DNA from: Anaerolineae bacterium
GTDB taxonomy: Bacteria; Chloroflexota; Anaerolineae; Aggregatilineales; Phototrophicaceae
Direction: 5' to 3'
Assembly: GCA_020849765.1 (NCBI GenBank)
Contig: JADLAY010000017.1
Span: 44,906-108,905, forward strand
Length of the DNA: 64,000 nucleotides
Shown here: positions 9,501 through 32,970 of the stretch, in pieces
Layout of the letters: every line of letters starts with the position of its first letter
Numbering within the stretch: the stretch's first letter is position 1
Notes under the pieces: model-generated
Database searches by the model: none
The model's input: the letters and a program-made list of their open reading frames with translations, nothing else
What the model was told of the DNA's origin: nothing
Made by a program: the position numbers and the translations under genes

Positions 9501-9516
9501 CGTGGGTCAAGAATCA

Positions 9517-9545
9517 GAGGAGCAGCCTCTGGAATGCTGCTCCTC
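9517..9545. terminator. Bidirectional hairpin between convergent genes
   Basis: GAGGAGCAGC-N9-GCTGCTCCTC (10 bp) between the MFS stop (9500) and the minus-strand stop at 9649. No clear U-tract. Confidence 0.4.
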
Positions 9546-9648
9546 AAACGTGCTATCGCTTCAGGTCGGCTGTTACGATATCCGGTCGCTCTCACCGCCA
9601 CTGCTCACAGCCGATGTAAATTCACAGTCTGTTCACCCAGACGTCGGC

Positions 9649-12199: not shown

Positions 12200-12205
12200 T
12201 GCGCC

Positions 12206-13702: not shown

Positions 13703-13741
13703 CGGCGGTCGGCTTTCGGCTATCCGCTGTCAGCCCTTCAA

Positions 13742-13856
13742 TTGAACCGCAGCCTGCTCCCCCGCGCAAGCGCGAGCCGAAACGAAGGGAAAACTTATGA
13801 ACCACGGAGAGCACAAAGGGGAGATTCTTTGTGTCCTTTGCGCCTTTGCGGTTCAA
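13742..13856. repeat. Inverted-repeat-bounded intergenic element
   Basis: TTGAACCGCA (13742-13751) pairs with TGCGGTTCAA (13847-13856). Internal hairpin CACAAAG-N9-CTTTGTG. Single copy in the window. Confidence 0.4.
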
Positions 13857-13973
13857 CATCCTCGTTCATTCCCATGATTCCTCGATACTCCCCACGCAGA
13901 GGTCTGCCTTACAATGAATATTATCGTGCAAAAAGATTGCTTCTGTCGTGCAGCCACGGAGGACGTCCAGCTC

Positions 13974-15467: not shown

Positions 15468-15510
15468 GCCAAGACCTACATACGAATCCAACGGTTATTC
15501 ACTGCACATT

Positions 15511-15534
15511 GGGCGCATCACGATGCGCCCCTAC
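15511..15534. repeat. REP-like element (family A)
   Basis: GGGCGCATC-AC-GATGCGCCC followed by CTAC. Its reverse complement is GTAG plus a palindrome. Confidence 0.5.
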
Positions 15535-15606
15535 TTGGCATTTGGCTGTTGGTGGGTCAGAATGGCCTGCCAATAGCCGATCATTGCAACTGCCAAGAGC
15601 CAGCTC

Positions 15607-16797
15607 ATGACTGAACGCCTTTACTACGATGACTCGTACACCCATTCGTTCACGGCCACCATCACCGAGACATTGACCCACGACGGACACACCGCCGTCG
15701 TGCTCGAACGCACCTATTTCTACCCGACCGGCGGCGGCCAGCCCCATGACACCGGCACCATCGGCGGCGTACGCGTGCTCGACGTGTTCACACGCCCGGA
15801 GGACAAGGCCGTCGTCCACGTGCTCGACGGCGAGGCGGCGGGCGAGGTCAGCTGCGAAATCGACTGGGCGCGCCGCTTCGATCACATGCAGCAGCACACC
15901 GGCCAGCACATTCTCACCCAGGCGTTCGTCCAGACTGCGGGTACGTCCACCGTCGGCTTCCACCTGAGCGAGAACAGCGTCACCATCGACCTCGACGCAG
16001 AAGCGCTGACCCCGGAACAAATCGCCACTGCCGAGTCTCTGGCAAATCAAATCGTCTACAAAGACCGCCGGGTGACGACTCGCCTGATCGACCCGGAGGC
16101 CGCCGAGGGCGTACGCATGCGCCGCGTACCAGAGGCGCTGGCGACCAATGGTCTGCGCGTGGTCGAGGTAGAGGATTTCGATTCGACGGCCTGTGGCGGT
16201 ACACACGTCGCGCGTACGGGGCAGATCGGCGCGATCAAGGTCGTCGGGCTGGAGCGCTACAAAGGTGGCCAGCGCATCGAGTTCCGCTGCGGCTGGCGGG
16301 CACTCCACGACTACGACCTGCGCATCGGCGTGACGGGCCAGTTGACGAGCGCCCTGACCTGCGGCCTGGTCGATCTCCCGGCGGCGGTCGAACGCCTACA
16401 AAACACGAACCGCGACCGTGAGCGGACGATCAAGACGCTGCAAGAGCGGCTAATCGAATACGAGGCGGTCGATCTGCTGGCGAATGCGCAAGAGCGCGAC
16501 GGCGCGCGCTGGATCATCGCCGCCTTCGACGACCGGGATGCGGCGGCACTGCGCTGGCTGGCCGGGCGGCTCGTGCAGGAGCCAGGCGTGATCGTGCTGC
16601 TCGGCATCGGCGGTGAGAAGACGCACGTCATCTGCGCGCGCAGTGCGGAGCTGACGCAGGACATGAACGCAATGTTGCAGACGGCGTTAGCGCCGTTCGG
16701 GGGACGCGGCGGCGGTAAACCGGCGCAGGCGCAGGGTGGCGGCGAAGGAGCATCACGCGATCAGGTGCAGGCGGCGCTGGAAGCCGCGGCGGGCTGA
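15607..16797 (+). CDS. alaX: Alanyl-tRNA editing protein, AlaX-L type (AlaRS editing domain + DHHA1)
   Basis: MTERLYYDDSYTHSF.., HMQQHTGQHILTQAF and CGGTHV zinc/editing motifs. C-terminal GGRGGGKP.AQG (DHHA1). Confidence 0.85.
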   Translation: MTERLYYDDSYTHSFTATITETLTHDGHTAVVLERTYFYPTGGGQPHDTGTIGGVRVLDVFTRPEDKAVVHVLDGEAAGEVSCEIDWARRFDHMQQHTGQHILTQAFVQTAGTSTVGFHLSENSVTIDLDAEALTPEQIATAESLANQIVYKDRRVTTRLIDPEAAEGVRMRRVPEALATNGLRVVEVEDFDSTACGGTHVARTGQIGAIKVVGLERYKGGQRIEFRCGWRALHDYDLRIGVTGQLTSALTCGLVDLPAAVERLQNTNRDRERTIKTLQERLIEYEAVDLLANAQERDGARWIIAAFDDRDAAALRWLAGRLVQEPGVIVLLGIGGEKTHVICARSAELTQDMNAMLQTALAPFGGRGGGKPAQAQGGGEGASRDQVQAALEAAAG

Positions 16798-16816
16798 GAG
16801 AATTCACACAAATTGT

Positions 16817-16840
16817 ACGGGCGGGATATATCCCGCCCGT
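16817..16840. terminator. Bidirectional terminator-like palindrome
   Basis: ACGGGCGGGATA/TATCCCGCCCGT is a perfect 12-bp palindrome between convergent alaX and cyclophilin genes. Weak T-tract. Confidence 0.45.
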
Positions 16841-16852
16841 GCATTGTTCCGC

Positions 16853-18094
16853 CTAGAGTTCCGCGGCGAAGATGTCCGACAGCAGCGCTTCGTAGAGCTG
16901 AGCGCCGACGAAGCGCGTCAGCCACAATTCCGGCCCGGACTCCTGATCGGCGGGGATGATGACCTCCGCCGTGGCGACGAAACGCCCGCGCTGCAAGTGA
17001 GTGAACGCGTGCGTGGCGTCCACATCACAGACGGTCTCGCTGCGCGTGTAGAGTGGGTACTTGAGCAGCACCGGGTTGCTCGGCGTGTAGCCATCGGCCT
17101 CGGCCAGCGTGTCCAGATAGCCATCGGTGATGGCGGCGTGCGCATCCGCGGCGCTCGCGTACGCATCGACCGTGTAGGCGACCTGCATGAACGGCAGTTG
17201 GCTCAGGTCACAGGTGGTCGTCTCAATTGAGTTGGCAACGCGATAGGCGTGATTGTGCGCAGCCAGGAAGTCGGCAAAGGCCGCCTGCTCGCTCTCCGGC
17301 GCGCTGGCCGCCGTCTCCTCGGTCGTGCGGATGCCGCTGCTGGCATCATCGACGATCAGGCCTTCGGGGACGTCCGGGCGAATGACGTCCAGGGCCGCTT
17401 CCACGTCTTCCGCGGTCGTTGTCGAGGTCTCATGCGCCGGCAGATCGACCGCCACTTCAGCCGGGTCGGTCAGGATGACGACCGTTTGCAGCGTCGTGCC
17501 CGGCTCGGGGTCCGTCTCCGGGTCGCGCAGGCGGATCGCGTCGACGTTCGACTGCCCATCGACCACCTTGCCGAAAATAGTGTGCTGGTAATTGAGATGC
17601 GGCGTCGGCACGGTCGTGATGAAAAACTGGCTGCCGTTGGTGCCTGCGCCCGCGTTCGCCATCGCCAGCAGGCCGGGCGTATCGAACGTCAGGTACGGCA
17701 GCAGTTCGTCAGTGAACTGGTAGCCGGGGCCGCTGGTGCCGGTCGCGGTCGGGTCGCCGCCCTGGGCCATGAAGCCCTCGATCACGCGGTGAAAGGTCGT
17801 GTTGTTGTAATAACCGTTGTCAGCCAGGAAGACGAAGTTGTTGACGGTCAGCGGCGTGTATTCTTCGAGCAAATCAATCGTGACCGGGCCGACGTCTGTG
17901 CAGAAGACAGCGTAGTAATCCGCGTTGGCTTCGAGCACCGTTTCCGGGTTTTCGTATTCGCGCGATGCGGGATCGGCGGCGGGCACGGCTTCGGCGCAGA
18001 TGTCCGCGGGGGTGCGCGCCTCTTGGGCGGCGGCGGGCAGCGTCATCGCCAGCACGAGCGCGGCGGCGATCAGCAGGGATAAGCAGCGTTTCAT
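16853..18094 (-). CDS. Secreted cyclophilin-type peptidyl-prolyl isomerase with a ~200-aa C-terminal extension
   Basis: Signal peptide MKRCLSLLIAAALVLAMTLPAAAQ. FHRVIEGFMAQGGDP and SQFFITT cyclophilin motifs. Confidence 0.85.
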   Translation of the reverse strand: MKRCLSLLIAAALVLAMTLPAAAQEARTPADICAEAVPAADPASREYENPETVLEANADYYAVFCTDVGPVTIDLLEEYTPLTVNNFVFLADNGYYNNTTFHRVIEGFMAQGGDPTATGTSGPGYQFTDELLPYLTFDTPGLLAMANAGAGTNGSQFFITTVPTPHLNYQHTIFGKVVDGQSNVDAIRLRDPETDPEPGTTLQTVVILTDPAEVAVDLPAHETSTTTAEDVEAALDVIRPDVPEGLIVDDASSGIRTTEETAASAPESEQAAFADFLAAHNHAYRVANSIETTTCDLSQLPFMQVAYTVDAYASAADAHAAITDGYLDTLAEADGYTPSNPVLLKYPLYTRSETVCDVDATHAFTHLQRGRFVATAEVIIPADQESGPELWLTRFVGAQLYEALLSDIFAAEL

Positions 18095-18329
18095 CTAGAC
18101 TCTCCGTTCAGTCAGGCGGGAGGCTCAATGGTAGCCGATACGCCCAGCTTTGCCAGGGCGGGAGTTTGAGGACAGAGGCACGCCGAAGCACTCATAGTCA
18201 GCCAGACTGGCTTACCGACGTACCATTTGCCAGACGACTTAAGAGGATCATCCTCCCCCATTTTCACGGGGGTTTCGACACTTGGCGTAGAAGATTTACA
18301 AATTTCTTCTATTTGGAAATTATCATGCT

Positions 18330-19367
18330 ATGGCATACGGCAATCGTATGAACTTCTACGGCCACACAAGCCTGATGGAAGGGTCGGTGAATATGAGTTT
18401 GGAGACATCTCACGTGCAGTTGGCGCAAGCGATGGCACATCTCGAAAAAGATGAAACAGCCGAAGCGTTGCGCTTGCTGAATGACCTGATTGAAAAGGTC
18501 GACCTCCTCGACGCGCATCGTTTGCGCTTCACCATCTTGATAAAACGAATCGACAATCCCCATGATCTACGCGCATCACTGGACGTGTTGCGAACGGAAG
18601 CCCCTGATATATACAGCGCCGGGTTGGTGGAACTCGAGACTCAAATTCACAATCGTTTGAGCGAATTGCAGGACGGGATTACCGAAGCCACGCAGCGTGC
18701 CGAGATGCAGTCGTACCTCGACGAATACGACGCACTTGTGGTGTTGAGCGACCTGTTCCCCGTCATTCAGGTTGCCCGTGGGCTGGGCTATATGGCCGCC
18801 GCTCGCATCAGGGACAAAAAGGGGCAACCGGGCACCGAATCCCCCTACGAACATCTGCGGAGATTGCTCGCTAAAGACATGGCGGTCCCTTTCATGCGCG
18901 AACGTAATGAAACGGACAGCGTCGACGATACACAGGCCGAAAGGTGGCGCATGACCGCAGAACAGGCACTGTCTGCGGCGCTGATTTCCTTAACGCCGAA
19001 TCATCCATCCGTTGTCGAGATCCATGAAGTCTTAGGGATGCTCTACGAGGGCATGCATGAATACAGCAAGGCACTGCGGTCCTTTCAGGCCGCAATAGAG
19101 CACGGCAGCAGCAACATGGAGGACAAGGTACACGAACTCACAACGAAGATCAAACAGGAAACAGAGCGTCTGGCACTGGAGCGAGTCGATTCACTCCTGG
19201 CGAACCAACACCTGGACGAAGCCGAAACCTGCCTGGCGGAGTATGCGCCAGATGCGTTGACCGATGCCTGGCACTTACGTTATGCGGAACTCGCATTGCT
19301 ACGTGGTGACCGCGAAACAGCAATGCATCACTACGCCCTCATCCTGCCCCTTGTCCACAACAAATGA
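18330..19367 (+). CDS. All-helical, TPR-like repeat protein, function unknown
   Basis: 345 aa with natural composition in a lower-GC patch. Start uncertain (ATGs at 18330, 18348, 18375, 18390). The stop is 15 nt before the next gene's ATG (AAGGAG RBS), so an operon. Confidence 0.6.
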   Translation: MAYGNRMNFYGHTSLMEGSVNMSLETSHVQLAQAMAHLEKDETAEALRLLNDLIEKVDLLDAHRLRFTILIKRIDNPHDLRASLDVLRTEAPDIYSAGLVELETQIHNRLSELQDGITEATQRAEMQSYLDEYDALVVLSDLFPVIQVARGLGYMAAARIRDKKGQPGTESPYEHLRRLLAKDMAVPFMRERNETDSVDDTQAERWRMTAEQALSAALISLTPNHPSVVEIHEVLGMLYEGMHEYSKALRSFQAAIEHGSSNMEDKVHELTTKIKQETERLALERVDSLLANQHLDEAETCLAEYAPDALTDAWHLRYAELALLRGDRETAMHHYALILPLVHNK

Positions 19368-19382
19368 GCAAGGAGATACCTG

Positions 19383-22124
19383 ATGGACTGGAATGATCCT
19401 TTCGTTGTGAGTAAAGCCTACGCGAAACTCCGCTCCATCGATCCGCCTGTCAATGCCGGATCAGATGCGGCTGTCCTTCCTCACGTGGCATTCAACGTGC
19501 CCGCCGATGACGTCAGGCGCCGAGCGCTTGCGGGTGTGCTTCATCTTCATCGCCAGGGTCGCCAGCAGTTTGATTTTCTGCCGCACCTGGAGACAGCCCT
19601 CCTATATGGCGACTTCGATGAGGAGACCAAACGCACGCTGCGCGCTGAAATCCGGGCGATTGAACGCGAGCGCCAGCAAGCTGCTTTTGCGACGATTCGC
19701 AGACTCAAGCGGAAGAAACTGCATGTCCAACCGAAACGCCGTTCGACAACCCGCCAACCCGCATCGTTTGTGATGCAGGTGACCGACGATAGCTGCATCG
19801 TCCGCTTTGGCTACCGGCTCACTAACGTGCGCGCAGTGCGCTTTGACATGCCCGTCGAGGCGGAAGGCGCGGCGTTACTCAGAACGCTGACTCAGGCTGT
19901 TGAAATCTGGAAAGACCGCCTCAGCCTGGGCCTTGAAGCTGACTTTACCTGGCGCTATTCCAGCGAGGCTCACCGTGTGAATCTGGAGTTGCTGGTTGAG
20001 CTTCATTTGCCGGAACCTGAAATGGCGGAGGAAGTCGTTCGTGGCCTACAAACCATCATTGAAAACCAACAGCCATTTCCCGAAGTCTATCATTTTGCGC
20101 GAATCGTCGAAAGGAAGCATCTTAAGAATTTCTACGGCAGCACATCGTTTGCCAGCGTCGCGGAGATCGTGCGCCATGAAGGTGTGATGGAGTATGAAGG
20201 GAAGAACCTCTATGTGATCTTTCCGGTGAAGGTGGATAGCGACCGCTTACACGATCTCATGGTCTACCTGCGTAGCGCAACGGATGGCAACGTCATCGAC
20301 ATCAAGATACGCCCCTCTGCGGTGACGCGCTCAGAGATCGATGCCGCTCTCGAGGCTATCACCATTGGCGTGAGTTATTATGACGAGGACAGCGAAGAGA
20401 TTCGGCTGAAAATGTCGGAAGGCGCGATCTTTGACCATCAATGGCTGAAAGCGCTGGATGCTTACCGGATGATGCTTTCCCAGATCCACAGCCAGGCTTA
20501 CGAAGTGCGCCTGCGTGTTGCCAGCAAAACGGATATCGACATCTTGCCGCTCGCCACGTTGGCCGGGCGTTCGCTCCTTGGCCTGGGAGCCTTCGACGTG
20601 ATTCCGGCGGCCTATGGTGCTCGGTCAATCGCCCTTGACGATCTGTCACCTCGCACCCGCGCCCCGGCAGAACTATCTCGGTTGCGCCGCATGTGGTCGC
20701 TTGTCGAAACAGCTTTTGTCACCCGCCTGCCACGACCATCTGCGGCGGGCATACCGGGAATCCCAATGACCCAGGTTAAGCCCCACCGGATACCCTCCGG
20801 GCTGCCTGAAGAGGGCTGTGTACTTGGACAGGTCACATCACAGGGAGAAACCACACCCACCCTGGTAAAACTACCTTACGTCGACCGCACACGACATGTC
20901 TATGTCGTCGGCCGAACCGGCACCGGCAAAACGACCATGCTGCATAACATGGCGCTGCAAGACATCGAAAATGGGCATGGTGTTGGGGTGATCGACCCCC
21001 ATGGCGACTTGATCGATGCGTTGTTGGAGCGCATACCGCACCATAGAGCCGGGGATGTTGTCCTGTTTGACCCTGGGGATATCTCGCGCCCGGTGGGTTT
21101 GAATTTGCTCGACGTGGAGGGCCCCATTGCGCAGAATTTGGCTGTCGCCGATTTTATTGGCTTGATGTACAGCATGTACGATCCGGGCCACACCGGGATC
21201 GTCGGCCCTCGATTCGAGCAAAGCGTGCGCAACAGCATGTACACCGCGATGGCAATACCCGGTGCGACCATCATCGACGTGCTGCGCATTATTAGCGATA
21301 ACCGGTACAGTCACGACGTCCAGAAGTATCTCACCGATCCGATTGTCAAAGACTATTGGGAGAAGATATACGACAGCCAGAGTGACTTTCATCGCAGCGA
21401 AGTCAAAGACTACATCACCAGCAAGTTCAGCCGCTTCACATCCGATCGTATGGTGCGGCAGATTATCGGCCAATCCAAGACCAGTCTCAATTTCGCCGAC
21501 ATTTTCAACAACAAGAAGATTCTGCTCGTCAATCTGGCGAAAGGGCGTATCGGCGAGTTCAACAGCCAGTTCCTGGGCTTCATTCTCGTATCGCAATTGT
21601 TGATTGCCGCATTCCAACGTGTGAACCAGGCTGTTGATCTGCGTATCCCATACTATCTGTACATTGATGAGTTTCAGAACTTCGCCACACCCGGCCTGGG
21701 GGCCATGCTTTCGGAGGGGCGAAAATATGGACTGGCGCTCACGCTGGCGCATCAATTCATCCATCAGCTGGATGTCAAAATCCGTGAAGCGGTTTTCGGT
21801 AACGTAGGCACTATCTGCGCTTTCCAGGTTGGGTTGCAGGATGCAGAGTATCTGGCTCGCGAGATGTACCCCGTCTTTGGCACTGACGATCTGGTCAATT
21901 TGCCAGCATATCATGCCGCGTCCAAGATTTTGGCGCACAAACAGACCCTGATGCCGTTTGTGATGCAGACGCTGCCCGAACAGAATCAGCCGCGAAAGGA
22001 AGTTGCTGACGCCATCCGGACTTTCAGTGGCCTGACATATGGGAGTAACGCGGCTGTCGTCGAAGACAACATTCGCGCTCAATTCGCGCTGCCCCTACAG
22101 AAACGTATGGAGCTGCTGACCTGA
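19383..22124 (+). CDS. Large P-loop ATPase of the HerA/FtsK/VirD4-TraD type with an unrecognised ~480-aa N-terminal region
   Basis: Walker A VVGRTGTGKTT (about nt 20905-20940), then VGVIDPHGDL. Walker B-like YYLYIDEFQNF. EGRKYGLALTLAHQ (TraG-D_C/HerA-like). No TM segments. Confidence 0.75.
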   Translation: MDWNDPFVVSKAYAKLRSIDPPVNAGSDAAVLPHVAFNVPADDVRRRALAGVLHLHRQGRQQFDFLPHLETALLYGDFDEETKRTLRAEIRAIERERQQAAFATIRRLKRKKLHVQPKRRSTTRQPASFVMQVTDDSCIVRFGYRLTNVRAVRFDMPVEAEGAALLRTLTQAVEIWKDRLSLGLEADFTWRYSSEAHRVNLELLVELHLPEPEMAEEVVRGLQTIIENQQPFPEVYHFARIVERKHLKNFYGSTSFASVAEIVRHEGVMEYEGKNLYVIFPVKVDSDRLHDLMVYLRSATDGNVIDIKIRPSAVTRSEIDAALEAITIGVSYYDEDSEEIRLKMSEGAIFDHQWLKALDAYRMMLSQIHSQAYEVRLRVASKTDIDILPLATLAGRSLLGLGAFDVIPAAYGARSIALDDLSPRTRAPAELSRLRRMWSLVETAFVTRLPRPSAAGIPGIPMTQVKPHRIPSGLPEEGCVLGQVTSQGETTPTLVKLPYVDRTRHVYVVGRTGTGKTTMLHNMALQDIENGHGVGVIDPHGDLIDALLERIPHHRAGDVVLFDPGDISRPVGLNLLDVEGPIAQNLAVADFIGLMYSMYDPGHTGIVGPRFEQSVRNSMYTAMAIPGATIIDVLRIISDNRYSHDVQKYLTDPIVKDYWEKIYDSQSDFHRSEVKDYITSKFSRFTSDRMVRQIIGQSKTSLNFADIFNNKKILLVNLAKGRIGEFNSQFLGFILVSQLLIAAFQRVNQAVDLRIPYYLYIDEFQNFATPGLGAMLSEGRKYGLALTLAHQFIHQLDVKIREAVFGNVGTICAFQVGLQDAEYLAREMYPVFGTDDLVNLPAYHAASKILAHKQTLMPFVMQTLPEQNQPRKEVADAIRTFSGLTYGSNAAVVEDNIRAQFALPLQKRMELLT

Positions 22125-22566
22125 CAACCCGTAATGCAAAGGCAAGAATGCCACAGAGCATAAGGCGAAGACTGGCTTCAGGTGAGCAAGTACCAACGGC
22201 CAATGAGGCGAGAACTGCCGTCAGGGGTCGTCGGCAGTCACCTGTGGCAATACCCAGGACGTTCAACCAGCGGCGAAGATCGGCTTGAGGACGAGCGCGC
22301 CGCCGAGGCAGACGAAGATGTAGACGAGATTGACGACCGCGCGGGTCGCCCAGGGATGGTGCGAGAAATCGAGCCCGACCGCGCGCCCAACGATCACAAC
22401 GACGGTCGCCAGGTCGTGCAGGCCCGCCCGAAATGACGAACGTCATCAGCAGCGCGATCACACAGCGTGGGATTCGGCCTCTCACACGGAAGGCTCATGC
22501 AACCGATGCTAACGCGGCGGCGTATACGGGGTTACGACTCGTGAACACAAATGCAGGGCATTGATC

Positions 22567-23271
22567 ATGGCGAAGGCACAACCGCAGACGTCCAGGCGAC
22601 ATTCGTGGATCGGCCCGATCCTTGCCGCGGTGATGTTCATCGCCGTCACCGGCGGGCTGATCTACGCCATGAATACGCTCGGCACGGAGCGCTTGCAGCA
22701 GATCGTGCGCGACGCCGGGCCGCTCGCCCCGCTGATCTACATCCTGCTGCGCGCGGCGACCTACGTTTTCGCCCCGCTAACGACCGGCCCGATCCAGATC
22801 GCGAGCGGCGCATTGTTCGGCGTCTGGGGCGGCATTATCCTGTCGGTCATCGGCGAGACGCTCGGCGGCAGCATCAACTTCTTCATCGGGCGGCGCTTTG
22901 GGCGCCCGGTCGCGCTGCGGCTGGCCGGTGAGGAAGGGCTGAAGAAAGCTGAGGAGTACTACCAGCTCGTCGGCGATTGGCGCGGGCTGGTCGTCGCGCG
23001 GTTGGTGCTGTTCGCCATCTGGGACTTCCTCAGCTACGTGATCGGCTTCACGCCCGCGAAGTTCATCCATTACCTGCTCGTGTCGCTGTTCGTCGGCGCC
23101 ATCCCGACGGCAGCGGCCGTCTTCCTCGGCTCACAGTTAGGCGGCGACAATCAAACACTGCTGATCGTCGGCCTGATCGTCCTCTGCGTCGTCTTGCTGC
23201 TGCCGGTGCTGTTCAGCAAGCGCATCCGCCATTGGATGAGCACGCGCGGTTCCGCCAAACCCGGGTTGTAA
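22567..23271 (+). CDS. TVP38/TMEM64 (DedA-related, SNARE-associated) family membrane protein
   Basis: ..PLIYILLRAATYVFAPLTTGPIQIASGALFGVWGG..INFFIGRRFGRP.. is the family signature. ATG 22567 is preferred over TTG 22561. Confidence 0.8.
   Translation: MAKAQPQTSRRHSWIGPILAAVMFIAVTGGLIYAMNTLGTERLQQIVRDAGPLAPLIYILLRAATYVFAPLTTGPIQIASGALFGVWGGIILSVIGETLGGSINFFIGRRFGRPVALRLAGEEGLKKAEEYYQLVGDWRGLVVARLVLFAIWDFLSYVIGFTPAKFIHYLLVSLFVGAIPTAAAVFLGSQLGGDNQTLLIVGLIVLCVVLLLPVLFSKRIRHWMSTRGSAKPGL
23158..23249 (+). repeat. Direct repeat copy A (3' end of the TVP38-family gene)
   Basis: 92 nt, 3 mismatches to 24104-24195 by hand alignment. Confidence 0.8.
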
Positions 23272-23359
23272 GCAGGTGATGGGTTTGCTGCAGCAGGGAT
23301 TAGCCGACTATACTGACACAAAGACTGAGTAGGCTATCAGAAGACAAACGGAGGCACGG

Positions 23360-24061
23360 ATGATGGATGCCAGTTTGATTCAACAAGCATATACCAGCAT
23401 TCAGCAGCACTTTGTCGAAACGGGACGCGCTCCACATTACACCGAATTAGCCTCGCTCCTGAGGATTACGCCCGACGAGGCACGCGCAGTCCAAAGCGCC
23501 GCAGCCAAAGCCGGTGTCGGGTGCTGGATTAGCGCAGACACCGATTACATCGCCTCATGGGCACCCTTCTCAAACATCCCCACCCAGTATCTCGTCACGG
23601 TAGACGGCCAACAAAAATGGTATGCGCAGTGAGGCCTGGAATCGCTGGCCGTGGGCTGGCTCTTTCCGGGCAAGGAAGTGCGCATAGAAGCGCGCTGTCT
23701 TGATTGCGGCGAGTCTATCCTCGTGCGCACAAAGGATGGCGAACTTCTGGACGCAAATCCGGACACCATTATCGGGCACATCAGCCTTCCCATCCGCCAA
23801 TGGGGAGCCGTCGCCAACGCCTTCCTCTGAAGTCACATCAATCTCTTCCGGTCGGAAGAACATGCGAAAAACTGGTTGCTCTATGATCCGTTGTCCGAGG
23901 AGTCGATCATGTCGCTGGCGGAGTGGATGCGGCTTGTCCGTGTCGGCTTGTGGCGCAACCGACTGCAGCCGGATTATCTCGCGCGGGTAGGCGAGTATCG
24001 CGCTGAGTTCCTGGCTACGGTGCATGAGATGGGCAAGACAGGCCCCTTCTGGCAGGTTTGA
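23360..24061 (+). CDS. MerB (alkylmercury lyase)-family protein with two in-frame TGA codons at the catalytic-Cys positions; candidate selenoprotein (alternative: pseudogene)
   Basis: One frame runs from ATG 23360 (GGAGG upstream) to TGA 24059-24061, interrupted only by TGA 23630-23632 and TGA 23828-23830. Motifs WYAQ-U-GLESLA, ARCLDCGESILV and FL-U-SHINLFRSEEHAKNW parallel MerB YAW-C96-ALD, the internal Cys region and F-C159-C-HVHFF..EDW. Confidence 0.6.
23644..23660 (+). other. SECIS-like hairpin 1
   Basis: GCUGGCC-GUG-GGCUGGC: 7 bp (5 Watson-Crick + 2 G-U). The loop starts 19 nt after the A of TGA 23630-23632. Confidence 0.4.
23844..23859 (+). other. SECIS-like hairpin 2
   Basis: UCUUCC-GGUC-GGAAGA: 6 Watson-Crick bp. 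The loop starts 20 nt after the A of TGA 23828-23830. Confidence 0.45.
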
Positions 24062-24103
24062 TAGACCAGGAAACAACTTTAGAGAGCTGATGCTCTCCAA
24101 ATG

Positions 24104-24195
24104 CTGCTGATCGTCGGCCTGATCGTCCTCTACGTCGTCTTGCTGCTGCCGGTGCTGCTCAGCAAGCGCATCCGCCACTGGATGAGCACGCGCGG
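24104..24195 (+). repeat. Direct repeat copy B (orphan duplicate of the TVP38-family 3' end)
   Basis: Encodes an orphan frame MLLIVGLIVLYVVLLLPVLLSKRIRHWMSTRGTSKGDC. Preceded by the hairpin GAGAGC-TGAT-GCTCTC (24082-24097). Confidence 0.8.
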
Positions 24196-24321
24196 CACCT
24201 CCAAAGGCGACTGCTGAGCCGTAAATTCACACGAAACCCGCGAAACGTAGGTCACGAGTCGGGTAGCGCGGCGCATTCTGTGGCAGGATCGGGCCGTCGC
24301 TCAGCGAATGGAGTACTGCCC

Positions 24322-24717
24322 ATGACACATACTCAGACTCAGTCATCCATCACGCCGTTCATGCTCGTGATCGGCATCGCCGTCGCGCTCTTCCTCGTGA
24401 GCATCGTCGCGCCGTTTTACGCCCTGGGGCTGCATCTCGAACCGGCCAATCTGGTCGCGGGCGGCAGCTTCGATCCGAAAGGCTTCGAACTGACCGGTGG
24501 CTGGCTGCGCATGGTCGGCTTCCTCACGCTCACGCTCGGCCCGCTGGCCGTGGCCGTCTGCGGCGGCCTGATCGCCTTCCGCCTGCTGCGACGCGGGGAT
24601 CAGCTTCCCAGCCGTCTGCGCCTCTACGGGGTGATCAGCTGCGCGGCAGCCATCGGCCTGTGGCTGTTCATCTTCTCGCCGCTGGGCCGCTTGATCCTGG
24701 CCTGGTTTCTCGACTAG
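24322..24717 (+). CDS. Small 4-TM membrane protein, function unknown
   Basis: 131 aa from ATG 24322 (MTHTQTQSSITPFMLVIGIAVALFLV..). Four hydrophobic helices. Confidence 0.55.
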   Translation: MTHTQTQSSITPFMLVIGIAVALFLVSIVAPFYALGLHLEPANLVAGGSFDPKGFELTGGWLRMVGFLTLTLGPLAVAVCGGLIAFRLLRRGDQLPSRLRLYGVISCAAAIGLWLFIFSPLGRLILAWFLD

Positions 24718-25862
24718 CCAGCAGGGCGAATACTCGAGGCAGCTTCGATATGAGCGGAGGCTGCCTCTGTCCATGCATCCGCATGGCCGATCGCCCCCTC
24801 CAGCACATCCTCTCGCAAGATCTGCCTCATCTTCTCCGGTTGTTCGTGGAACGGACTGTGAGCGGACTGCTCGAAGGTGTAGAAGCCCTTCAGAGGTGCT
24901 TTGATCTGCTCGAAGTATGCCCTGGCTTCCGGATAGGATGTCGTGTAATCGTGGCTGCCATGCACGAAATAGACGGGCAGCTTCAGTTCCGTCACCACTT
25001 GCGTCAGATCGGTGGCGAGGAGCTGCTCCCACAAGACGGCCCTGGAGAAGAACTTGCCGCGCCACAGGCTGATCTTTTCGCTGACCGTGTATTCCGGGCT
25101 CAGCCAAGATCGCAGGAAGATGCCCGTGATGACCGACCTCATGTCGCGCGTCGTGCCGATGCCAAGGCTGTGCATGGCGTCGTCGCGCAGTGCGTTGTAC
25201 GCCGCGGGCAGCCCATCCGTCATCGTGACGGGCGCTTGCTCTAGCTTGCGCGCCATCCTCCGGTTGCCGTTGGCCTTGAACTGCTGAAGCATGTAGTCGT
25301 AGGCCCACTTTTCGGACTTCAGCTGGTACGTCACCTGGCTGATGCCGATGTAGGCGTGATAGATTTCCGGTGTCCGTGCCGCGACTTGCAGACCGAGAAA
25401 GCTGCCCCAGGAATGCCCCATCAGGTAGATCTTGTCTTGACCAAAGCGCTGGCGCAGATAATTCGTGACTTCGAGCGTATCCGCGATCAGTTGCTCCACG
25501 GTGAGGGTCGCCGCGGACATCCCGGCATGGTAGGAGAGACCTGCGCCGCGCTGTTCCCACCAGCAGACGGTGAAGTCGTTCTCCAGATCCGCCGGATAAC
25601 GCCGGTTGAGGAAGTATGTCGGCATTCCAGGGCCGCCGTGAAGGAAGAGCAGCACCGGCTTCGATAGATCCTTGCTCCTGATGAACATGCCCTGGGCCAG
25701 GCCGTTGATGTTGACATGGATCTTTTCGGACAGGCTGCCCGTCAGTGGGTTGCCATCTTCATCGAGGAGCGGCGCCGGTCTTCCGTGACTCCAGAGCAGC
25801 AGCGCGCCGACCGGCATGAGAAGGCAAATCAACAGGATCGTGATTGCAGGCAACATAGGCAT
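24714..25862 (-). CDS. Alpha/beta hydrolase (proline iminopeptidase/epoxide-hydrolase-like), membrane-anchored
   Basis: HGGPG oxyanion motif (LLFLHGGPGMP). Nucleophile elbow GHSWG. N-terminal TM. Confidence 0.8.
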   Translation of the reverse strand: MPMLPAITILLICLLMPVGALLLWSHGRPAPLLDEDGNPLTGSLSEKIHVNINGLAQGMFIRSKDLSKPVLLFLHGGPGMPTYFLNRRYPADLENDFTVCWWEQRGAGLSYHAGMSAATLTVEQLIADTLEVTNYLRQRFGQDKIYLMGHSWGSFLGLQVAARTPEIYHAYIGISQVTYQLKSEKWAYDYMLQQFKANGNRRMARKLEQAPVTMTDGLPAAYNALRDDAMHSLGIGTTRDMRSVITGIFLRSWLSPEYTVSEKISLWRGKFFSRAVLWEQLLATDLTQVVTELKLPVYFVHGSHDYTTSYPEARAYFEQIKAPLKGFYTFEQSAHSPFHEQPEKMRQILREDVLEGAIGHADAWTEAASAHIEAASSIRPAG

Positions 25863-25999
25863 CCCGTTTCGCAGAGGGAAGGAGGGAAAATCGCCGGGCT
25901 TTGTCTCCGTTTGTCGTTGGGGGAATTAAGGTCACGCTAGACGTGCCGGAGTCCGATAAGGCCGAACTCCGGCACGATTCTGCGCCGCAGCCGAGTCCG

Positions 26000-26494
26000 T
26001 TACGACTCGTTTACAGGCGTGCGCCTGATACGGCGGATGATGTAACGCAGGGTGCCATCCGGCACTTTGACTTCGATCACGTCGCCCTTCTGGCAGCCGA
26101 GCAGGATCTTGCCGACCGGCGATTCGACTGAGACGCCGTCGCCCAGGTAGGCGACTTCCTCGTGGCTGCGCAGGACGAAGGTATCCGTTTCGCTGGTGTC
26201 GATGTCTTCGATGGTGACTTCGTCGCCCATGTCGACGCGATGCGGATCGGGATCTTCCTCAATGATCTCCGCCCGGTCGAGCACCGAACGCAAATAATTG
26301 ATGCGCTCGTCCAGATATTCTTTCTGCACGCGCGATTCGTAATCCGTGCCCTCGTCGTCCGGCTGCAGACCGCCCTCGCGGCGGATGTCGATCAGCTGTT
26401 CGGTCACCTGACGCTGGCGCTCGAGTAAAGCGTCGAGCTCGCGCTTGAGATTGTCATAACCCTGGCGTGTGAGTGTGAAGTTTTCAGCAGCCAT
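26000..26494 (-). CDS. greA: Transcription elongation factor GreA
   Basis: 164 aa from ATG 26492-26494. MAAENFTLTRQGYDNLKRELDAL.. coiled-coil N-terminus and a C-terminal ..SVESPVGKILLGCQKGDVIEVKVP.. motif. Confidence 0.9.
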   Translation of the reverse strand: MAAENFTLTRQGYDNLKRELDALLERQRQVTEQLIDIRREGGLQPDDEGTDYESRVQKEYLDERINYLRSVLDRAEIIEEDPDPHRVDMGDEVTIEDIDTSETDTFVLRSHEEVAYLGDGVSVESPVGKILLGCQKGDVIEVKVPDGTLRYIIRRIRRTPVNES

Positions 26495-26701
26495 TGCACG
26501 CCTCCAATTGTGCGTGTGGTGATTATCCTGAATTGTAGGGCCTTTTGCCCGGACATAGGACAGGGTTCGCGGGTGATGTTCGGCATGTTTACCGGTTGGT
26601 GAGTGAATGGCGACATCTATGGTAATCGCCCCTGTTTCTGTGTAGGATGGAGACTGACACGCGACTCTGGCGTAATGGAGTAGTAAAGCAAGGATAAGCA
26701 G

Positions 26702-27802
26702 ATGCATCGACTTTTTCTGATAGGGGCGGCGCTCGCGGCGGTTTTATTGATCGGCGTGCAGGTGACCGTCGCACAAGACCCGACGGCGACGACTGAGATG
26801 GCCGAGACGGTGGAGAGCCCCATCCCGGAGAACATTCGCCAGTCATTGCTGGCGGGTGGCGTCAATTTGCAGTTTGGCTTTTATGATACGGACAATTACG
26901 AGCCGGAGTCGTTTGACGAGGAACTGCCGTTGATCGCCGAGGCGGGCGCGCGCCACGTGCGGCTGCCGATCAGCATGGACATTCTCGAACGCGATCAAAC
27001 CGGGCGCCTGCGCAGCGACCGCTTCGCCGACGTCAAGCGCTTCGTCGAGCTGGCGCAGTCATACGGCCTGCTCACGATCATCGACGTGCACAACACCGGC
27101 CTGCGCGAATGCGACGGCTGCCCATGGACAGAAAATTACATGTGGGGCGTGGACGTGCCGAGTGTGCGCGAGCGCCACACCAGCCTGATGGTGGCGCTGG
27201 TCACAGAGTTGTATCGCAGTGGTCTGGATCGCGATTGGTTCGTCGTTCAGCCCGCCAACGAGCCGATCTTCTCCAGCAATCCAGGCGACTGGTACGCATA
27301 TCAGGCGGAACTGCTCGGCGAAATGCGCCAGGAGTGCCCGGACTGTGTGTTCTTCGCCATGGCCCACGACTGGCAGAGCATCCAGGCGACCGTCGACAAC
27401 CTCAATCCCCCGCTTGACGATCCGCTGCTCATCTACGACGTGCATTTCTACGAGCCGCTGGCGCTGACTCACTGCGCATTTCCGGGCCAGGAGAACACCT
27501 GCCTCGGATTGGAATACCCCGGCACGTTTACTTCGTGGCGCGGCGAGGAATACTGGGACAAGGCCAAGATCGAAGAGACCTTCCAGCCGCTCGTCAACTG
27601 GCGCGATCAGTATGGCGTGATGGTGCACTTCAGCGAGGTCGGCACTGCTGACCTGCTGGCCGAAGATGTGCGCGCCCATTACCTCGGCGACGTGGTGTCG
27701 ACCCTGCGTGAAGACGGCTTCGGCTACTCGATCTTCGAGTGGCACCGCAACTTCGGCGTCAAGGGCTTCCCGGACGTGCTGGCGGCGGTCTTCCCTAACT
27801 AG
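26702..27802 (+). CDS. Secreted glycoside hydrolase family 5 (cellulase-like)
   Basis: Signal peptide MHRLFLIGAALAAVLLIGVQVTVAQ. RHVRLPI, IIDVHN and QPANEP (catalytic acid/base NEP) motifs. Confidence 0.75.
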   Translation: MHRLFLIGAALAAVLLIGVQVTVAQDPTATTEMAETVESPIPENIRQSLLAGGVNLQFGFYDTDNYEPESFDEELPLIAEAGARHVRLPISMDILERDQTGRLRSDRFADVKRFVELAQSYGLLTIIDVHNTGLRECDGCPWTENYMWGVDVPSVRERHTSLMVALVTELYRSGLDRDWFVVQPANEPIFSSNPGDWYAYQAELLGEMRQECPDCVFFAMAHDWQSIQATVDNLNPPLDDPLLIYDVHFYEPLALTHCAFPGQENTCLGLEYPGTFTSWRGEEYWDKAKIEETFQPLVNWRDQYGVMVHFSEVGTADLLAEDVRAHYLGDVVSTLREDGFGYSIFEWHRNFGVKGFPDVLAAVFPN

Positions 27803-27825
27803 AAACGGCCACAATCCCCTACGGA

Positions 27826-27870
27826 TAAAAACAGGCGGCGCATCGGTCAAAGATGCGCCGCCTGTTTGTT
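27826..27870. terminator. Bidirectional rho-independent terminator
   Basis: AAAA-ACAGGCGGCGCATC-N7-GATGCGCCGCCTGT-TTTGTT (14-bp stem) between convergent genes. Confidence 0.8.
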
Positions 27871-27891
27871 CTCGAACTGTGATACACGGAC

Positions 27892-28428
27892 TCAGCGGGC
27901 GAAGATCGAGATGGTGCCGCTCTCGCCGACCGAGCGCCCATCGACGAACTGCACGGTACTGCTGACGATCACATCCGCCAGGTACAGGTCGGCATACGCG
28001 CCGGACACCGACAGGATCACCCCGGTCGCACGGATGGTAGCCAGGTCTTCACCTTCGGGGTGATGGAAGTTGCCCGCATAATAGCCCTCGATCATGCCGG
28101 CCTCGGTTTCAATCGTGAACATGACCGTCACCTGATGAAATGGCGGTGACGGATTGGACGTCATCTCGCTGACGCGCGCCGTGATGGTGCCCGCGAGCGT
28201 GCCGCTCGCCGACCCCGCCGACATGATGCGGAAGGTCATGCGCCCGTCCGTCAGCAGTTCGATCGTGGGCGGCCCGGCAGCCGCGGTGCTGAAATCCACG
28301 ACGACGGGCGTGCTCGCAAGATTGATGGGTTCAATCATGTCCGCCTCCTGAGCCAGCGCCATGCCGGACAGGCCGACAATAGCGAGGCAGACGACCAACA
28401 GGGTGAGAAAGTGGCTTCGCTTCAACAT
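27892..28428 (-). CDS. Secreted hypothetical protein
   Basis: 178 aa. Signal peptide MLKRSHFLTLLVVCLAIVGLSGMALAQ. No recognisable motif. Confidence 0.55.
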   Translation of the reverse strand: MLKRSHFLTLLVVCLAIVGLSGMALAQEADMIEPINLASTPVVVDFSTAAAGPPTIELLTDGRMTFRIMSAGSASGTLAGTITARVSEMTSNPSPPFHQVTVMFTIETEAGMIEGYYAGNFHHPEGEDLATIRATGVILSVSGAYADLYLADVIVSSTVQFVDGRSVGESGTISIFAR

Positions 28429-28568
28429 GGTTCGCTCCTGAAATAGTGAATGGACTTCTCCAATGAACCATGTTCAGGCGGCAAACCGAAGGCGTCATCC
28501 GCACAAAAAACCGTACAATGATCTCATAATAGCTATTTTACGAAAACTCAGGCAATTTACGGGGTTTG

Positions 28569-30917
28569 ATGGTTCAGGAAATCACCTTCAGTCAATGGCT
28601 CAAGACGCGGCGCAAACTGTTGGATCTCACACAGCAGGCGCTGGCGGATCGCATCCACTGCTCGGTCGAGACGATCTTCAAGATCGAAGCCGGGCAGCGC
28701 CGCCCCTCACCGCAGATCGCGCGGCTGATCGCCGACGAGCTGAACATCCCGGCGCATGAGCAAGACGACTTCATCGGCTTCGCGCGCGCCGAAGCGCCAA
28801 CCCGCCTGCACAGCCACCGAGTCGAGTTCACGCCCTGGCGCGACGCCTTCATTCCCCAGCACAATCTGCCGCTGCAGTTCACGGCGTTGATCGGGCGCGA
28901 GCAGCACGCCCAGGAAGCGCTCGTGCGCCTGCGCGAGGAAGACGTGCGCCTGCTGACGATTCTGGGGCCGCCCGGCATCGGCAAAACCCGGCTCGCGATC
29001 CAACTGGGCAGCGACGCCCTGCTCGACTTCCCCGACGGCGTCACGTTCGTCGAGCTGGCCTCCGTCACCCAGCCTGACCGCGTGATCCCGGCCATCGCCC
29101 GCACGCTCGACATCTCGATTGCCGGTCACAAGAAGCCGCTCGAAAGCCTGCAAGCCTATCTCTACGAGCGGCACACACTGCTCATCCTCGACAACTTCGA
29201 GCAAATCCTGGACGCAGCGCCCGACGTGCATGCCCTGCTGGCCGCCTGCCCGCTGATCAAGGTGGTCGCCACCAGCCGCGCGCCGCTCCGTCTGCGCGGC
29301 GAACGGCAGTTCCCGTTACAACCGCTGGCGCTGCCCGCACGCATCAACGATCTGAATGTCCACGGGCTGGCAGGCTATGCGTCCATCCAGTTGTTCGTCG
29401 ACCGGGCACGAGCTGTACAGCCCGGCTTCGCGCTGAGCGCCGATAATGCCGCCGCGCTGGCTGCCATCTGCGCCCGGCTTGACGGCCTGCCGCTCGCCAT
29501 CGAGATCGTCGCGGCGCAGGTGGCCGTGCTGCAACCGGAGGAAATCCTCGATCATCTGACCGGGCGGCGACTGCTGCAAAGCCAGGGCATGGCCGATGCT
29601 GATCCGCGCCATCAAACACTGAACGCTGCCATCGACTGGAGCTATCGCCAGCTTCATGACGACGAGCAGGTCTTCTTCCGGCGTATGGGCATCTTCGTCG
29701 ATGGCTGTGCGCTCGAAGCCGCTCAGGCTGTCTGCCAGCCGGAGCAGGACATTGTCCAGGTGCTGTCCAAGCTCGTGAGCATGAATCTGCTCAAACGCGA
29801 AACGGGCGCGGGGGGCGCATCCCGCTACCAGATGCTGGATACACTGCGCGCCTTCGCCCGCCAGGAACTGCATGCGCAAGCTGAATGGGATCCGCTTCTA
29901 TCACGCCACGCCGCTTATTTCCACGACTTCGCCCTGGCGCAAGAGGCGAGCGTGCGCAGTCACGGTCAGGTCGACGGCCTGGAGCGCGTCGAGCGCGAGC
30001 ACAGCAATCTTCAGGCGGCGCTGGATTACTTCCTGGCGACAGGGGCATGGGCGCAAGGGCTGACGCTGGCCGGGGCGCTGATCGAGTTCTGGGTCTATCG
30101 CAACCACCTGCTCGTCGGCCTGGATTACGTTCGCGCGTTCCTGGATGCCACGGCGGGCGATCCAGCGCTGCACGCGAGCCGGGCGCGGCTGTTGAACGGC
30201 GCGGCTATCCTGGCCTATTTTGCCGGGGATTATGCCGCCATCGGCCCCTATGCCGAAGCGGCACTCGCGGCAGCACAATCGGCCAACAACCCGCGCGAGA
30301 TCGCCTGGGCCTGCGCCAACCTGGGCATGATGAGCGGCGGCATGCACGATTTCGCAGCGGCGATCCGGTTCTTCGAGCAGGGCATGGCTGCAGCTCAAGA
30401 AGCCGATCTCCCATGGGAGACGGGCAGCCTGCTCAACGGCCTGGGCGAAGTCGCGCGCAGCCAGCGGCGCTATGAGGAAGCGATGCGCTACTACCAGCGC
30501 GGGCTTGCCGATGCCCGAAAGCTGGGGAATCACTGGCTCGCGGCGCACATCCTCGACAACATTGCGCACGCTGCCTATGCCCAGGGGCAGTTCGAGGTCG
30601 CCGCCGCATACACGCGCCAGAGCCTGGAGGCGAGCATGATCCTGGGCGACGAACGCGGCATCGCCATGTGCCTGGAGAAGATGGGCGGGATCGCCATCGC
30701 CAGCGGCGCGCCCGAACGGGCAGCGCACCTCCTCGGCGCGGCGGAAGCCCTGCGCAAAGCCAAGAACGCGCCGGTCGAGGGCATGGATGCCGAGGATTAT
30801 CATCGCTTCGTGGCCGACGTGCGCCAACAGCTCGCCCCGGATGCGCTCGAAGCAGCCTGGCAGTTCGGGGGGCAAACGCCCCTGGCGCAGATCATCGATC
30901 AGGTGCTCAACGGCTGA
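28569..30917 (+). CDS. STAND-type regulator: XRE HTH + NB-ARC/AAA ATPase + TPR repeats
   Basis: HTH FSQWLKTRRKLLDLTQQALADRIHCSVETIFKIEAG. Walker A LGPPGIGKTRLA. Walker B LLILDNFEQ. The C-terminal half is TPR-like. Confidence 0.8.
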   Translation: MVQEITFSQWLKTRRKLLDLTQQALADRIHCSVETIFKIEAGQRRPSPQIARLIADELNIPAHEQDDFIGFARAEAPTRLHSHRVEFTPWRDAFIPQHNLPLQFTALIGREQHAQEALVRLREEDVRLLTILGPPGIGKTRLAIQLGSDALLDFPDGVTFVELASVTQPDRVIPAIARTLDISIAGHKKPLESLQAYLYERHTLLILDNFEQILDAAPDVHALLAACPLIKVVATSRAPLRLRGERQFPLQPLALPARINDLNVHGLAGYASIQLFVDRARAVQPGFALSADNAAALAAICARLDGLPLAIEIVAAQVAVLQPEEILDHLTGRRLLQSQGMADADPRHQTLNAAIDWSYRQLHDDEQVFFRRMGIFVDGCALEAAQAVCQPEQDIVQVLSKLVSMNLLKRETGAGGASRYQMLDTLRAFARQELHAQAEWDPLLSRHAAYFHDFALAQEASVRSHGQVDGLERVEREHSNLQAALDYFLATGAWAQGLTLAGALIEFWVYRNHLLVGLDYVRAFLDATAGDPALHASRARLLNGAAILAYFAGDYAAIGPYAEAALAAAQSANNPREIAWACANLGMMSGGMHDFAAAIRFFEQGMAAAQEADLPWETGSLLNGLGEVARSQRRYEEAMRYYQRGLADARKLGNHWLAAHILDNIAHAAYAQGQFEVAAAYTRQSLEASMILGDERGIAMCLEKMGGIAIASGAPERAAHLLGAAEALRKAKNAPVEGMDAEDYHRFVADVRQQLAPDALEAAWQFGGQTPLAQIIDQVLNG

Positions 30918-31079
30918 CAAACAAGGGCGACTCTGGCCTGCCACGGCAGAATTTACGCCGTATTTACGCGACCCCCTAAACTGTAGGTGGCCCGCCACAT
31001 CAAATTTATCCTAAATTAAGAGGGTGCGGCGCGTGCTTCTGGTGCGCGTCGCTTCTATTTGTAGGGTGGGAGGTGGGCC

Positions 31080-32921: not shown

Positions 32922-32932
32922 GGCAGTATGCG

Positions 32933-32960
32933 GTGGGGCGAGGATTGCGCCTCGCCCCAC
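32933..32960. repeat. REP-like palindrome (GTGG head), probable terminator of the flotillin gene
   Basis: GTGGGGCGAGG-ATTGCG-CCTCGCCCCAC, 12 nt after the TAA stop. Related to the core at 8157-8181. Confidence 0.5.
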
Positions 32961-32970
32961 TGCGATCTTC

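Follow-up and report, generated by a model that had tools for sequence, protein, structure and literature searches.

Why the 3' end of a membrane-protein gene should stand twice, on either side of a gene for a MerB-like protein, is the question raised by a 64,000-nucleotide (nt) stretch of an Anaerolineae bacterium (GenBank assembly GCA_020849765.1, contig JADLAY010000017.1, positions 44,906 to 108,905 of the forward strand; hereafter the window). The duplicated end belongs to a gene of the TVP38/VTT family, and the gene enclosed by the two copies matches the MerB family and is interrupted by two in-frame TGA codons. The favoured explanation, which is probable when taken as a whole, is the insertion of a foreign gene that duplicated the end of its target, the cargo being an intact gene for a predicted selenoprotein with selenocysteine (Sec) in place of both catalytic cysteines.

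A repeat search of the window returned a 108-nt direct repeat of 93% identity, with copy 1 at 23152-23259 and copy 2 at 24098-24205, 946 nt from start to start. The core that the first-pass annotation had aligned by hand with three mismatches is recovered by blastn over the same 92 nt (23158-23249 against 24104-24195, 96.7% identity, three mismatches), and the two copies align gap-free when compared as pairs; over a 98-nt core (23152-23249 in copy 1) their identity is 94.9%, with five mismatched positions. One 28-mer taken from the core is present at exactly two places in the window, and no match arose in 100 shuffles. Copy 1, an attL-like junction on the forward strand, encodes the last transmembrane helix and the basic stretch of the TVP38 protein, as had been proposed. 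The gene itself (22561-23271, forward strand, starting with TTG at 22561 or ATG at 22567) matches Pfam VTT_dom with 62 bits, is native to the host and still intact after the insertion, and ends at 23271 in a diverged, seven-residue replacement tail (SAKPGL and stop). Copy 2, an attR-like junction on the same strand, contains the expected orphan frame of 38 codons (24101-24217), whose tail reads TSKGDC before the stop and is followed by ancestral intergenic DNA. It begins 36 nt past the stop of the MerB-like gene, right after a small hairpin at the right end of the insert (24078-24101, forward strand, core 24082-24097) that folds as described earlier, with 6 bp and a 3' arm overlapping the first bases of copy 2 (CAAA); the hairpin is not conserved downstream of homologs at the other loci compared. 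Between the copies lie 848 bp, close to the 850 bp first estimated, with the MerB-like gene as their sole gene; that part of the annotation stood, but the gene is not one plain open reading frame (ORF), given its two in-frame TGA codons.

Relatives that lack the insert reveal which copy is the older. A scan of a genome collection with the TVP38 protein identified a syntenic Anaerolineae metagenome-assembled genome (MAG), CHL11 (L001), with 86% amino acid identity in TVP38 and colinearity at about 76-84% nucleotide identity over window positions 8227-18166 and 22495-32961. Its site is empty: the TVP38 stop is followed directly by a small membrane protein gene and then by greA. A second and closer relative (L089, GCA_014860775.1; TVP38 88% identical in amino acids) has the same small membrane gene downstream of TVP38. 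In the window this native neighbour lies at 24322-24717 on the forward strand, beyond the MerB-like gene, and shares 71% amino acid identity with its counterpart at 10991-11371 in L001. Three segments of the window are without counterpart in L001, namely 18167-22494, 23239-24357 (which includes the MerB region) and 24719-25960. Because the TVP38 3' end of L089 and the DNA downstream of it align to window positions 24103-24381, copy 2 and the DNA that follows it, copy 2 is, as judged by alignment, the displaced ancestral 3' end, collinear with the downstream DNA of both relatives and without evident function, and copy 1 is the gene end now in use. The copy 2 frame has no visible Shine-Dalgarno sequence, its ATG represents a C-to-T change relative to an ACG codon in L089, and it carries two substitutions relative to both outgroups (C to Y and F to L).

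The age and origin of the arrangement can be placed in relative terms. Over the 98-nt core either copy is 78.6-79.6% identical to L089, against 94.9% between the copies, which dates the duplication, or the last event that homogenised the copies, to after the divergence from the empty-site genomes. The G+C content at third codon positions (GC3) is 0.67 in the MerB-like gene, compared with 0.89 in TVP38 and 0.86 in the small membrane gene. At 87 other loci with a homolog of the MerB-like gene, nucleotide similarity to the window is restricted to the coding sequence (23360-24065), the flanks are unrelated, and TVP38 is a neighbour in none. Together, the empty sites, the identity of the copies and the GC3 of the MerB-like gene support both an insertion scar and an acquisition that is recent in relative terms, which is what the first-pass annotation had suggested; the arrangement is not shared by the relatives, and there is no sign that copy 2 is a genuine paralogous gene. 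Horizontal insertion with target duplication is therefore very likely on the sequence evidence.

The cargo gene occupies 23360-24061 on the forward strand and comprises 233 codons, with TGA at codon 91 (23630-23632) and codon 157 (23828-23830). With cysteine substituted at both, its product matches Pfam MerB (PF03243; E-value 1.7e-22) at 80.1 bits against a gathering threshold of 27, and in alignments to solved MerB and MerB2 structures of the PDB the two TGA codons fall on the catalytic residues Cys96 and Cys159. A metagenome scan yielded more than 530 relatives, and the TGA or Cys states were read at 83 homologous loci: both positions are TGA in 75, seven have TGC or TGT at the first and TGA at the second, and one is aberrant, so that TGA stands at codon 157 in 82 of the 83 and at codon 91 in 75. 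One natural homolog (P0077) has cysteine at both sites. In the family alignment translation is kept through both TGA codons to a common C-terminus, with ratios of nonsynonymous to synonymous substitution rates (dN/dS) of 0.07-0.17 in the segments after the first and the second TGA. Since TGA is also the commonest ordinary stop in the window (23 of 44 ORFs), a global reassignment of this codon is not indicated.

Database records reflect the same codons in another way. Many homologs are listed at about 156 amino acids, ending exactly at the second TGA, and some end at the first; public records hold members as 'hypothetical protein', truncated at 156 amino acids, in MAGs of Rokubacteria and Anaerolineaceae. 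JGI calls on short contigs (P0001-P0004 and similar, and positions 896-1609 of L091) show tryptophan at both Sec positions, and the DNA of P0004 has stop codons under translation table 11 where the JGI protein has tryptophan. These entries appear to have been called with a code in which TGA means tryptophan, an artefact that hides the Sec codons.

Each TGA is followed by a predicted hairpin of the kind expected of a bacterial selenocysteine insertion sequence (bSECIS). Published criteria for such elements comprise an apical loop of 3-9 nt with G as its first or second base, an upper stem of 4-16 bp, a distance of 16-37 nt from UGA to loop, and a minimum free energy of -7.5 kcal/mol or lower (PMC13188914), and both hairpins lie within all four limits. 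Hairpin 1 (23634-23671; with its Sec codon 23630-23671, forward strand) has a 7-bp upper stem, the apical loop GUG, 18 nt between UGA and loop, and a minimum free energy of -23.8 kcal/mol (z -2.65). Hairpin 2 (23844-23859; with its Sec codon 23828-23859, forward strand) reads CUCUUCC-GGUC-GGAAGA(A/G), with a 6-bp stem, the loop GGUC, 19 nt between UGA and loop, and -8.0 kcal/mol. Across the family, the paired positions of hairpin 1 hold standard pairs in 91.9% of cells, compared with at most 60% in slid controls, and the stem-loop of hairpin 2 is essentially invariant in 70 distinct sequences. Synonymous choice is correspondingly narrow: normalised codon entropy is 0.47 in hairpin 1 and 0.19 in hairpin 2, compared with 0.735 in the rest of the gene, and five consecutive codons of hairpin 2 (CTC, TTC, CGG, TCG and GAA) are used at 99-100%. 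Hairpin 1 is less stable in the six distinct sequences that have cysteine as residue 91 (mean -8.7 against -11.3 kcal/mol, one-sided p=0.014), and one of them has lost the loop G; such weakening is what relaxed constraint on this element would produce. Three features sought in a bacterial selenoprotein gene are thus present, namely conserved in-frame UGA codons with flanking coding conservation, cysteine homologs, and hairpins within the bSECIS limits. On this reading the gene would be expressed in its host.

The protein has a MerB fold, as far as modelling and alignment can tell. A structure model was built for the natural all-cysteine member P0077, standing in for the window protein, and its 11 top Foldseek matches are all MerB or MerB2 (E about 1e-8, TM-score 0.50-0.57). 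The predicted active site comprises Sec91, Glu94 and Sec157, and a CxxC motif is conserved at 113-116; Glu94, Cys113 and Cys116 are invariant or nearly so in the family, and Sec157 is preceded by A, N, R, L, G or K and in no case by C. By analogy with MerB, an organometallic substrate would bind between the two selenolates and its carbon-metal bond would be cleaved by protonolysis, with Glu94, which replaces Asp at the proton-donor position, protonating the leaving carbon. Hg-Se bonds are very strong, so product release would be a problem for a site with two selenolates, and the conserved CxxC may serve as an internal metal acceptor, or the physiological metal may not be mercury. This chemistry, and the substrate with it, is modelled on that of MerB.

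The family shows no consistent neighbourhood. No gene family recurs beside the MerB-like gene in more than 3 of 45 loci, and the analysis of neighbours gave no functional clue. Within the insert, the 88-nt leader (23272-23359, forward strand) has no homolog in any fetched locus, nor has the 36-nt trailer after the gene, and blastn homology to other loci begins at 23360; a GGAGG motif (23350-23354) precedes this ATG by 5 nt. A promoter scan of the insert found no consensus sigma-70 promoter, and a promoter-like match noticed by eye (TTGCTG-18-TATACT) falls outside the scan criteria, so that no promoter is claimed from it. Other in-frame TGA candidates were sought across the window as an indirect sign of Sec use by the host, but the 65 matches obtained carry no weight in DNA so rich in GC.

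Some individual members of the family are of separate interest. At one metagenomic locus (L008, 519-1283 and 1891-2727) the two-Sec MerB-like gene encodes, as called, an extra N-terminal extension of about 45 residues that resembles a coiled coil, and it lies downstream of a fusion gene joining ArsR (HTH_5) and LMWPc domains, a possible metalloid-resistance context represented by this single instance. On two contigs of one metagenome, the MerB-like gene is flanked on both sides by a palindromic intergenic element of about 95 nt (L050, 128-204, 1168-1250 and 1883-1959; L069, 714-808 and 1661-1755), which resembles repetitive extragenic palindromic (REP) elements and reads GCCTAAC..CTCGCTGGAGCGGACGCAGC...GCTGCGCCGCTCAGCTCGAG..GTTAGGC in both.

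How the gene came to be inserted is best approached through the tails that lie beyond the repeat core. Copy 1 (23250-23271) and copy 2 (24196-24217) agree there in 12 of 22 nt, a match to the copy 2 tail that just 0.33% of random 22-mers of the window attain (P=0.003). The stops of the two copies fall at the same codon, and L001 and L089 have the same stop codon and tail length; pairwise tail identities among copy 1, copy 2, L001 and L089 are all 50-59%. To judge from this alignment, a weaker homology of the copies probably extends to their stop codons. Because the copy 1 tail has the orthologous length and stop and matches the copy 2 tail at 12 of 22 nt, it looks like a genuine foreign TVP38 tail, and the DNA that came in may thus have had a TVP38-like 3' end of its own.

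A route that would account for these features begins with a foreign gene, together with its leader of about 88 nt and its 36-nt trailer, entering the chromosomal TVP38/VTT 3' end of an Anaerolineae-like bacterium. The inserting recombination would have duplicated about 100-120 nt of the target, and copy 1 would have kept the membrane gene intact through its substitute seven-residue tail. The most likely course is one reciprocal crossover, Campbell-type or attP/attB-like, joining the chromosomal 3' end with a circular intermediate of about 946 bp that bore a similar segment of a TVP38 3' end. The direct repeats so produced would be attL-like and attR-like, and the unit could be excised again if they recombined with each other. 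Such a crossover predicts the native left part of the gene followed by the element's tail and the cargo, and then the element's left part followed by the native tail. The mismatches largely show this polarity: at 23186 and 23212 it is copy 1 that resembles the outgroup, whereas at 23232 and in the tail it is copy 2. As a mechanism of insertion this is plausible, and the single-crossover route specifically is held with a little less than even confidence.

Several observations weigh against this account, some against the route and some against the reading of the cargo. At 23157 it is copy 1 that is derived, opposite to the polarity of a single crossover, and the polarity as a whole rests on just five sites and would equally fit simple decay of copy 2. 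The step in identity from 95% in the core to 55% in the tail would need an att-like segment of identity or later gene conversion. No integrase, relaxase or transposase is encoded in the 848-bp insert, and none is found among the large ORFs of the window except a distant IS200-like fragment; a donor in which TVP38 adjoins the MerB-like gene is absent among the 87 loci. At other loci the repeats that flank the gene are REP-like elements or terminators and not duplicated gene 3' ends. Regarding the cargo, neither tRNA-Sec nor selA, selB or selD is present in the 64-kb window, where the single tRNA is tRNA-Gln, no other Rfam match occurs and 44 large ORFs were covered. Finally, the P0077 model is of low confidence around the second catalytic position (residues 144-183), and no active-site geometry is claimed from it.

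The main rival to a single crossover leads to the same outcome by illegitimate means, whether a linear fragment underwent homology-facilitated illegitimate recombination, the template was switched during replication, or a widely staggered break was repaired, with the copy 1 tail being merely insert DNA that chances to stop early. The lack of a recombinase gene with the insert, a possible 4-nt microhomology (CAAA) at the right junction, and a leader and trailer without homologs would suit such an origin, as would the varying length of the TVP38 tail among orthologs, which implies that many accidental tails would be tolerable. However, the copy 1 tail stops at the exact orthologous codon and matches the copy 2 tail better than 99.7% of random 22-mers do; moreover, the normal effect of homology-facilitated illegitimate recombination on recipient DNA is deletion, not duplication, and known transposases make target duplications far shorter than 100 nt or so. 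These routes are accordingly regarded as unlikely, if still worth serious consideration. The direction of change might also be reversed, the occupied arrangement being ancestral and the empty relatives having lost the MerB-like gene through recombination between the repeats. Precise deletion is indeed favoured by direct repeats of about 100 nt, and just two relatives, both fairly distant (about 80-85% nucleotide identity), were compared; yet continuous gene conversion would be needed to hold the copies at 94.9% identity when each is about 79% identical to L089, two independent losses would be required, the GC3 of the MerB-like gene is foreign to its surroundings (0.67 against 0.86-0.89), and none of the 87 loci shows vertical linkage to TVP38. 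Ancestral occupancy is thus improbable.

The remaining explanations concern the assembly and the gene itself. Two strain variants, with and without the gene, might have been threaded into one contig, and it is true that the relatives are metagenome-assembled and that repeats of about 100 nt approach read or k-mer length. The copies nevertheless differ at five core positions and in their tails, at the right junction (24097/24098) the repeat begins directly after unique insert DNA, an arrangement that would need real reads rather than a shared k-mer, and synteny is otherwise colinear over more than 20 kb, which makes an artefact very improbable. It is hardly credible that the TGA codons are inactivating mutations or ordinary stops, leaving a pseudogene or three small genes as cargo. 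Gene callers and public annotation do give the homologs as hypothetical proteins of about 156 or 90 amino acids, and Sec machinery was not seen in the window; against this stand the TGA codons at both catalytic positions in 75 of 83 loci, down to about 50% identity, the interchange of Sec and Cys at both sites, the dN/dS of 0.07-0.17 downstream of each TGA, and SECIS-like hairpins with frozen synonymous sites. For the family as a whole, the pseudogene explanation is effectively refuted. The favoured explanation, a foreign-gene insertion that duplicated the target end, accordingly concerns one event: the gene-flanking repeats at L043, L050, L057, L069 and L032 are REP-like palindromes that occur more than twice, non-coding repeats or hairpins of terminators, with no relation to each other from host to host. 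A common cassette structure with flanking direct repeats was rejected for this reason, and the repeat structure is a property of the single event in this genome.

The locus thus offers a clean, datable acquisition of a single gene with its target left working, and with one occupied and two empty sites available for comparison; its repeat structure predicts reversible excision. The repeat by itself is ordinary, and the predicted selenoprotein it encloses matters more. It is tentatively proposed, at somewhat under an even chance, that the cargo represents a widespread and uncatalogued selenoprotein family of MerB fold, with a diselenol Sec/Glu/Sec site, a CxxC motif and two SECIS elements per gene, distinct from SaoL and from the MerB of mer operons, which moves among uncultured bacteria as a stand-alone single-gene unit and is here caught shortly after integration. 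Were this so, an organometal-handling site with two selenolates would bind Hg(II) and other soft metals far more tightly than MerB does, implying a different substrate, or a mechanism of sequestration and hand-off. MerB-type selenoproteins were recognised only in 2022, with SaoL, and have one Sec each (bioRxiv 10.1101/2022.07.06.499078). A second and much wider branch in which both metal ligands are Sec would extend the prokaryotic selenoprotein catalogue, correct hundreds of truncated 'hypothetical protein' annotations, and offer a testable system for the effect of selenolates on carbon-metal cleavage and metal release. It would also bear on Hg-Se antagonism and organometal cycling in the sediments, soils and wetlands where sequences of the family occur.

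Other parts of the window also carry DNA of apparently separate origin. The window-specific segment 18167-22494, immediately upstream of TVP38, has a GC3 of 0.64-0.65 and takes the place of a cupin gene in L001; it encodes a 345-residue protein with no Pfam match (18330-19367) and a 913-residue P-loop ATPase-like protein (19383-22124) with TrwB/TraD/VirD4-, DUF87/HerA- and TraG-D_C-like matches, and may represent what is left of a conjugative element, or else a pair of NTPases of defence type. No two of the three genomes compared have the same DNA upstream of TVP38. Downstream, an alpha/beta-hydrolase gene (24714-25862, reverse strand, GC3 0.78), within the window-specific segment 24719-25960, lies between the small membrane gene and greA, where the gap in L001 is 38 bp; no flanking direct repeat was found around this insertion. 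With the native genes of an 8-kb stretch each bracketed by window-specific DNA, the region looks like a local hotspot of gene gain. The greA ORF (26000-26707, reverse strand) is listed at 235 amino acids, compared with 177 in its L001 ortholog; translation probably begins near 26533 and leaves out the N-terminal 58 codons. Farther away, 37120-39313 encodes a 551-residue protein with an N-terminal TIR and a C-terminal FGE-sulfatase domain (GC3 0.58), followed by a 181-residue ORF with a partial match to IS200-like Y1 transposase, and may be a defence-type island. A 167-residue TIR-domain protein and a 331-residue protein without Pfam match, adjoining gyrA at 54638-56148 (reverse strand, GC3 0.48-0.51), are likely an acquired module.

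Among known modes of insertion, the nearest parallel is with integrative elements that target the 3' ends of genes and carry a replacement end, so that attL and attR repeats are formed; integrase-less cis-mobilizable elements (CIMEs) belong to this group. The locus shares with them repeats of the target 3' end with the gene reconstituted, a left tail supplied by the element, a native right end that is displaced, and high identity in the core with low identity in the tails. It differs in that the insert has 848 bp and a single cargo gene, no cognate integrase is encoded in the insert or among the window ORFs, and a unit with the same ends was not found elsewhere. Campbell-type integration and homology-facilitated illegitimate recombination, which follow DNA uptake, would likewise duplicate a short homologous segment on both sides and need no dedicated recombinase; however, a donor with a TVP38 3' end beside the MerB-like gene was not observed, and simple homologous exchange does not explain the step in identity between core and tail. 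The target-site duplication of a transposon (2-15 bp, with terminal inverted repeats and a transposase) is rejected, as the duplication here measures 98-120 nt, the insert ends carry no inverted repeats and no transposase lies nearby. An integron cassette resembles the insert as a single, promoter-poor ORF unit of about 0.9 kb that could circularise, but inspection revealed no attC-type site or GTTRRRY core, the window has no intI, and the repeats are host coding sequence.

Among known proteins, SaoL (NF040728; Haft & Gwadz, bioRxiv 10.1101/2022.07.06.499078; PMC13188914, PMC9312934) is the MerB-like selenoprotein encoded in the SAO locus; it has one Sec, in a CU dipeptide, and belongs to a conserved nine-gene locus of strict anaerobes. 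A literature search for two-Sec MerB proteins returned SaoL as the one MerB-type selenoprotein, the searchable literature being incomplete, and a search on selenoproteins of Chloroflexi found nothing useful. SaoL and the window protein share the MerB fold (PF03243), a Sec at the position of MerB Cys159 and database truncation at UGA. Unlike SaoL, the window family has two Sec residues (at MerB positions 96 and 159), no CU dipeptide, and an invariant Glu instead of Asp at the proton-donor position, and its gene occurs singly, amid varying neighbours, in Anaerolineae, Rokubacteria and many uncultured lineages. As the window protein scores 43.2 bits against the SaoL profile cutoff of 140 and lacks an SAO neighbourhood, identity with SaoL is rejected. 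Canonical MerB and MerB2 (PDB 3F0P, 3F2G and 5C17) resemble it in fold, with an N-terminal helical domain and a core, and the three catalytic positions align; MerB, however, has Cys96, Asp99 and Cys159 where the window protein has Sec, Glu and Sec, and the latter also extends about 40 residues farther at its C-terminus and carries an additional conserved CxxC at 113-116. Its scores against the MerB equivalogs NF009710 and NF033555 (39 and 36 bits) fall below the cutoffs (193 and 200), and no mer operon (merR, merT, merP, merA) lies beside it among the window ORFs or recurs in the 45 loci, so that it is not a canonical organomercurial lyase. The window protein is therefore filed, by its sequence features, within the MerB superfamily as a new two-Sec variant that is neither SaoL nor MerB proper.

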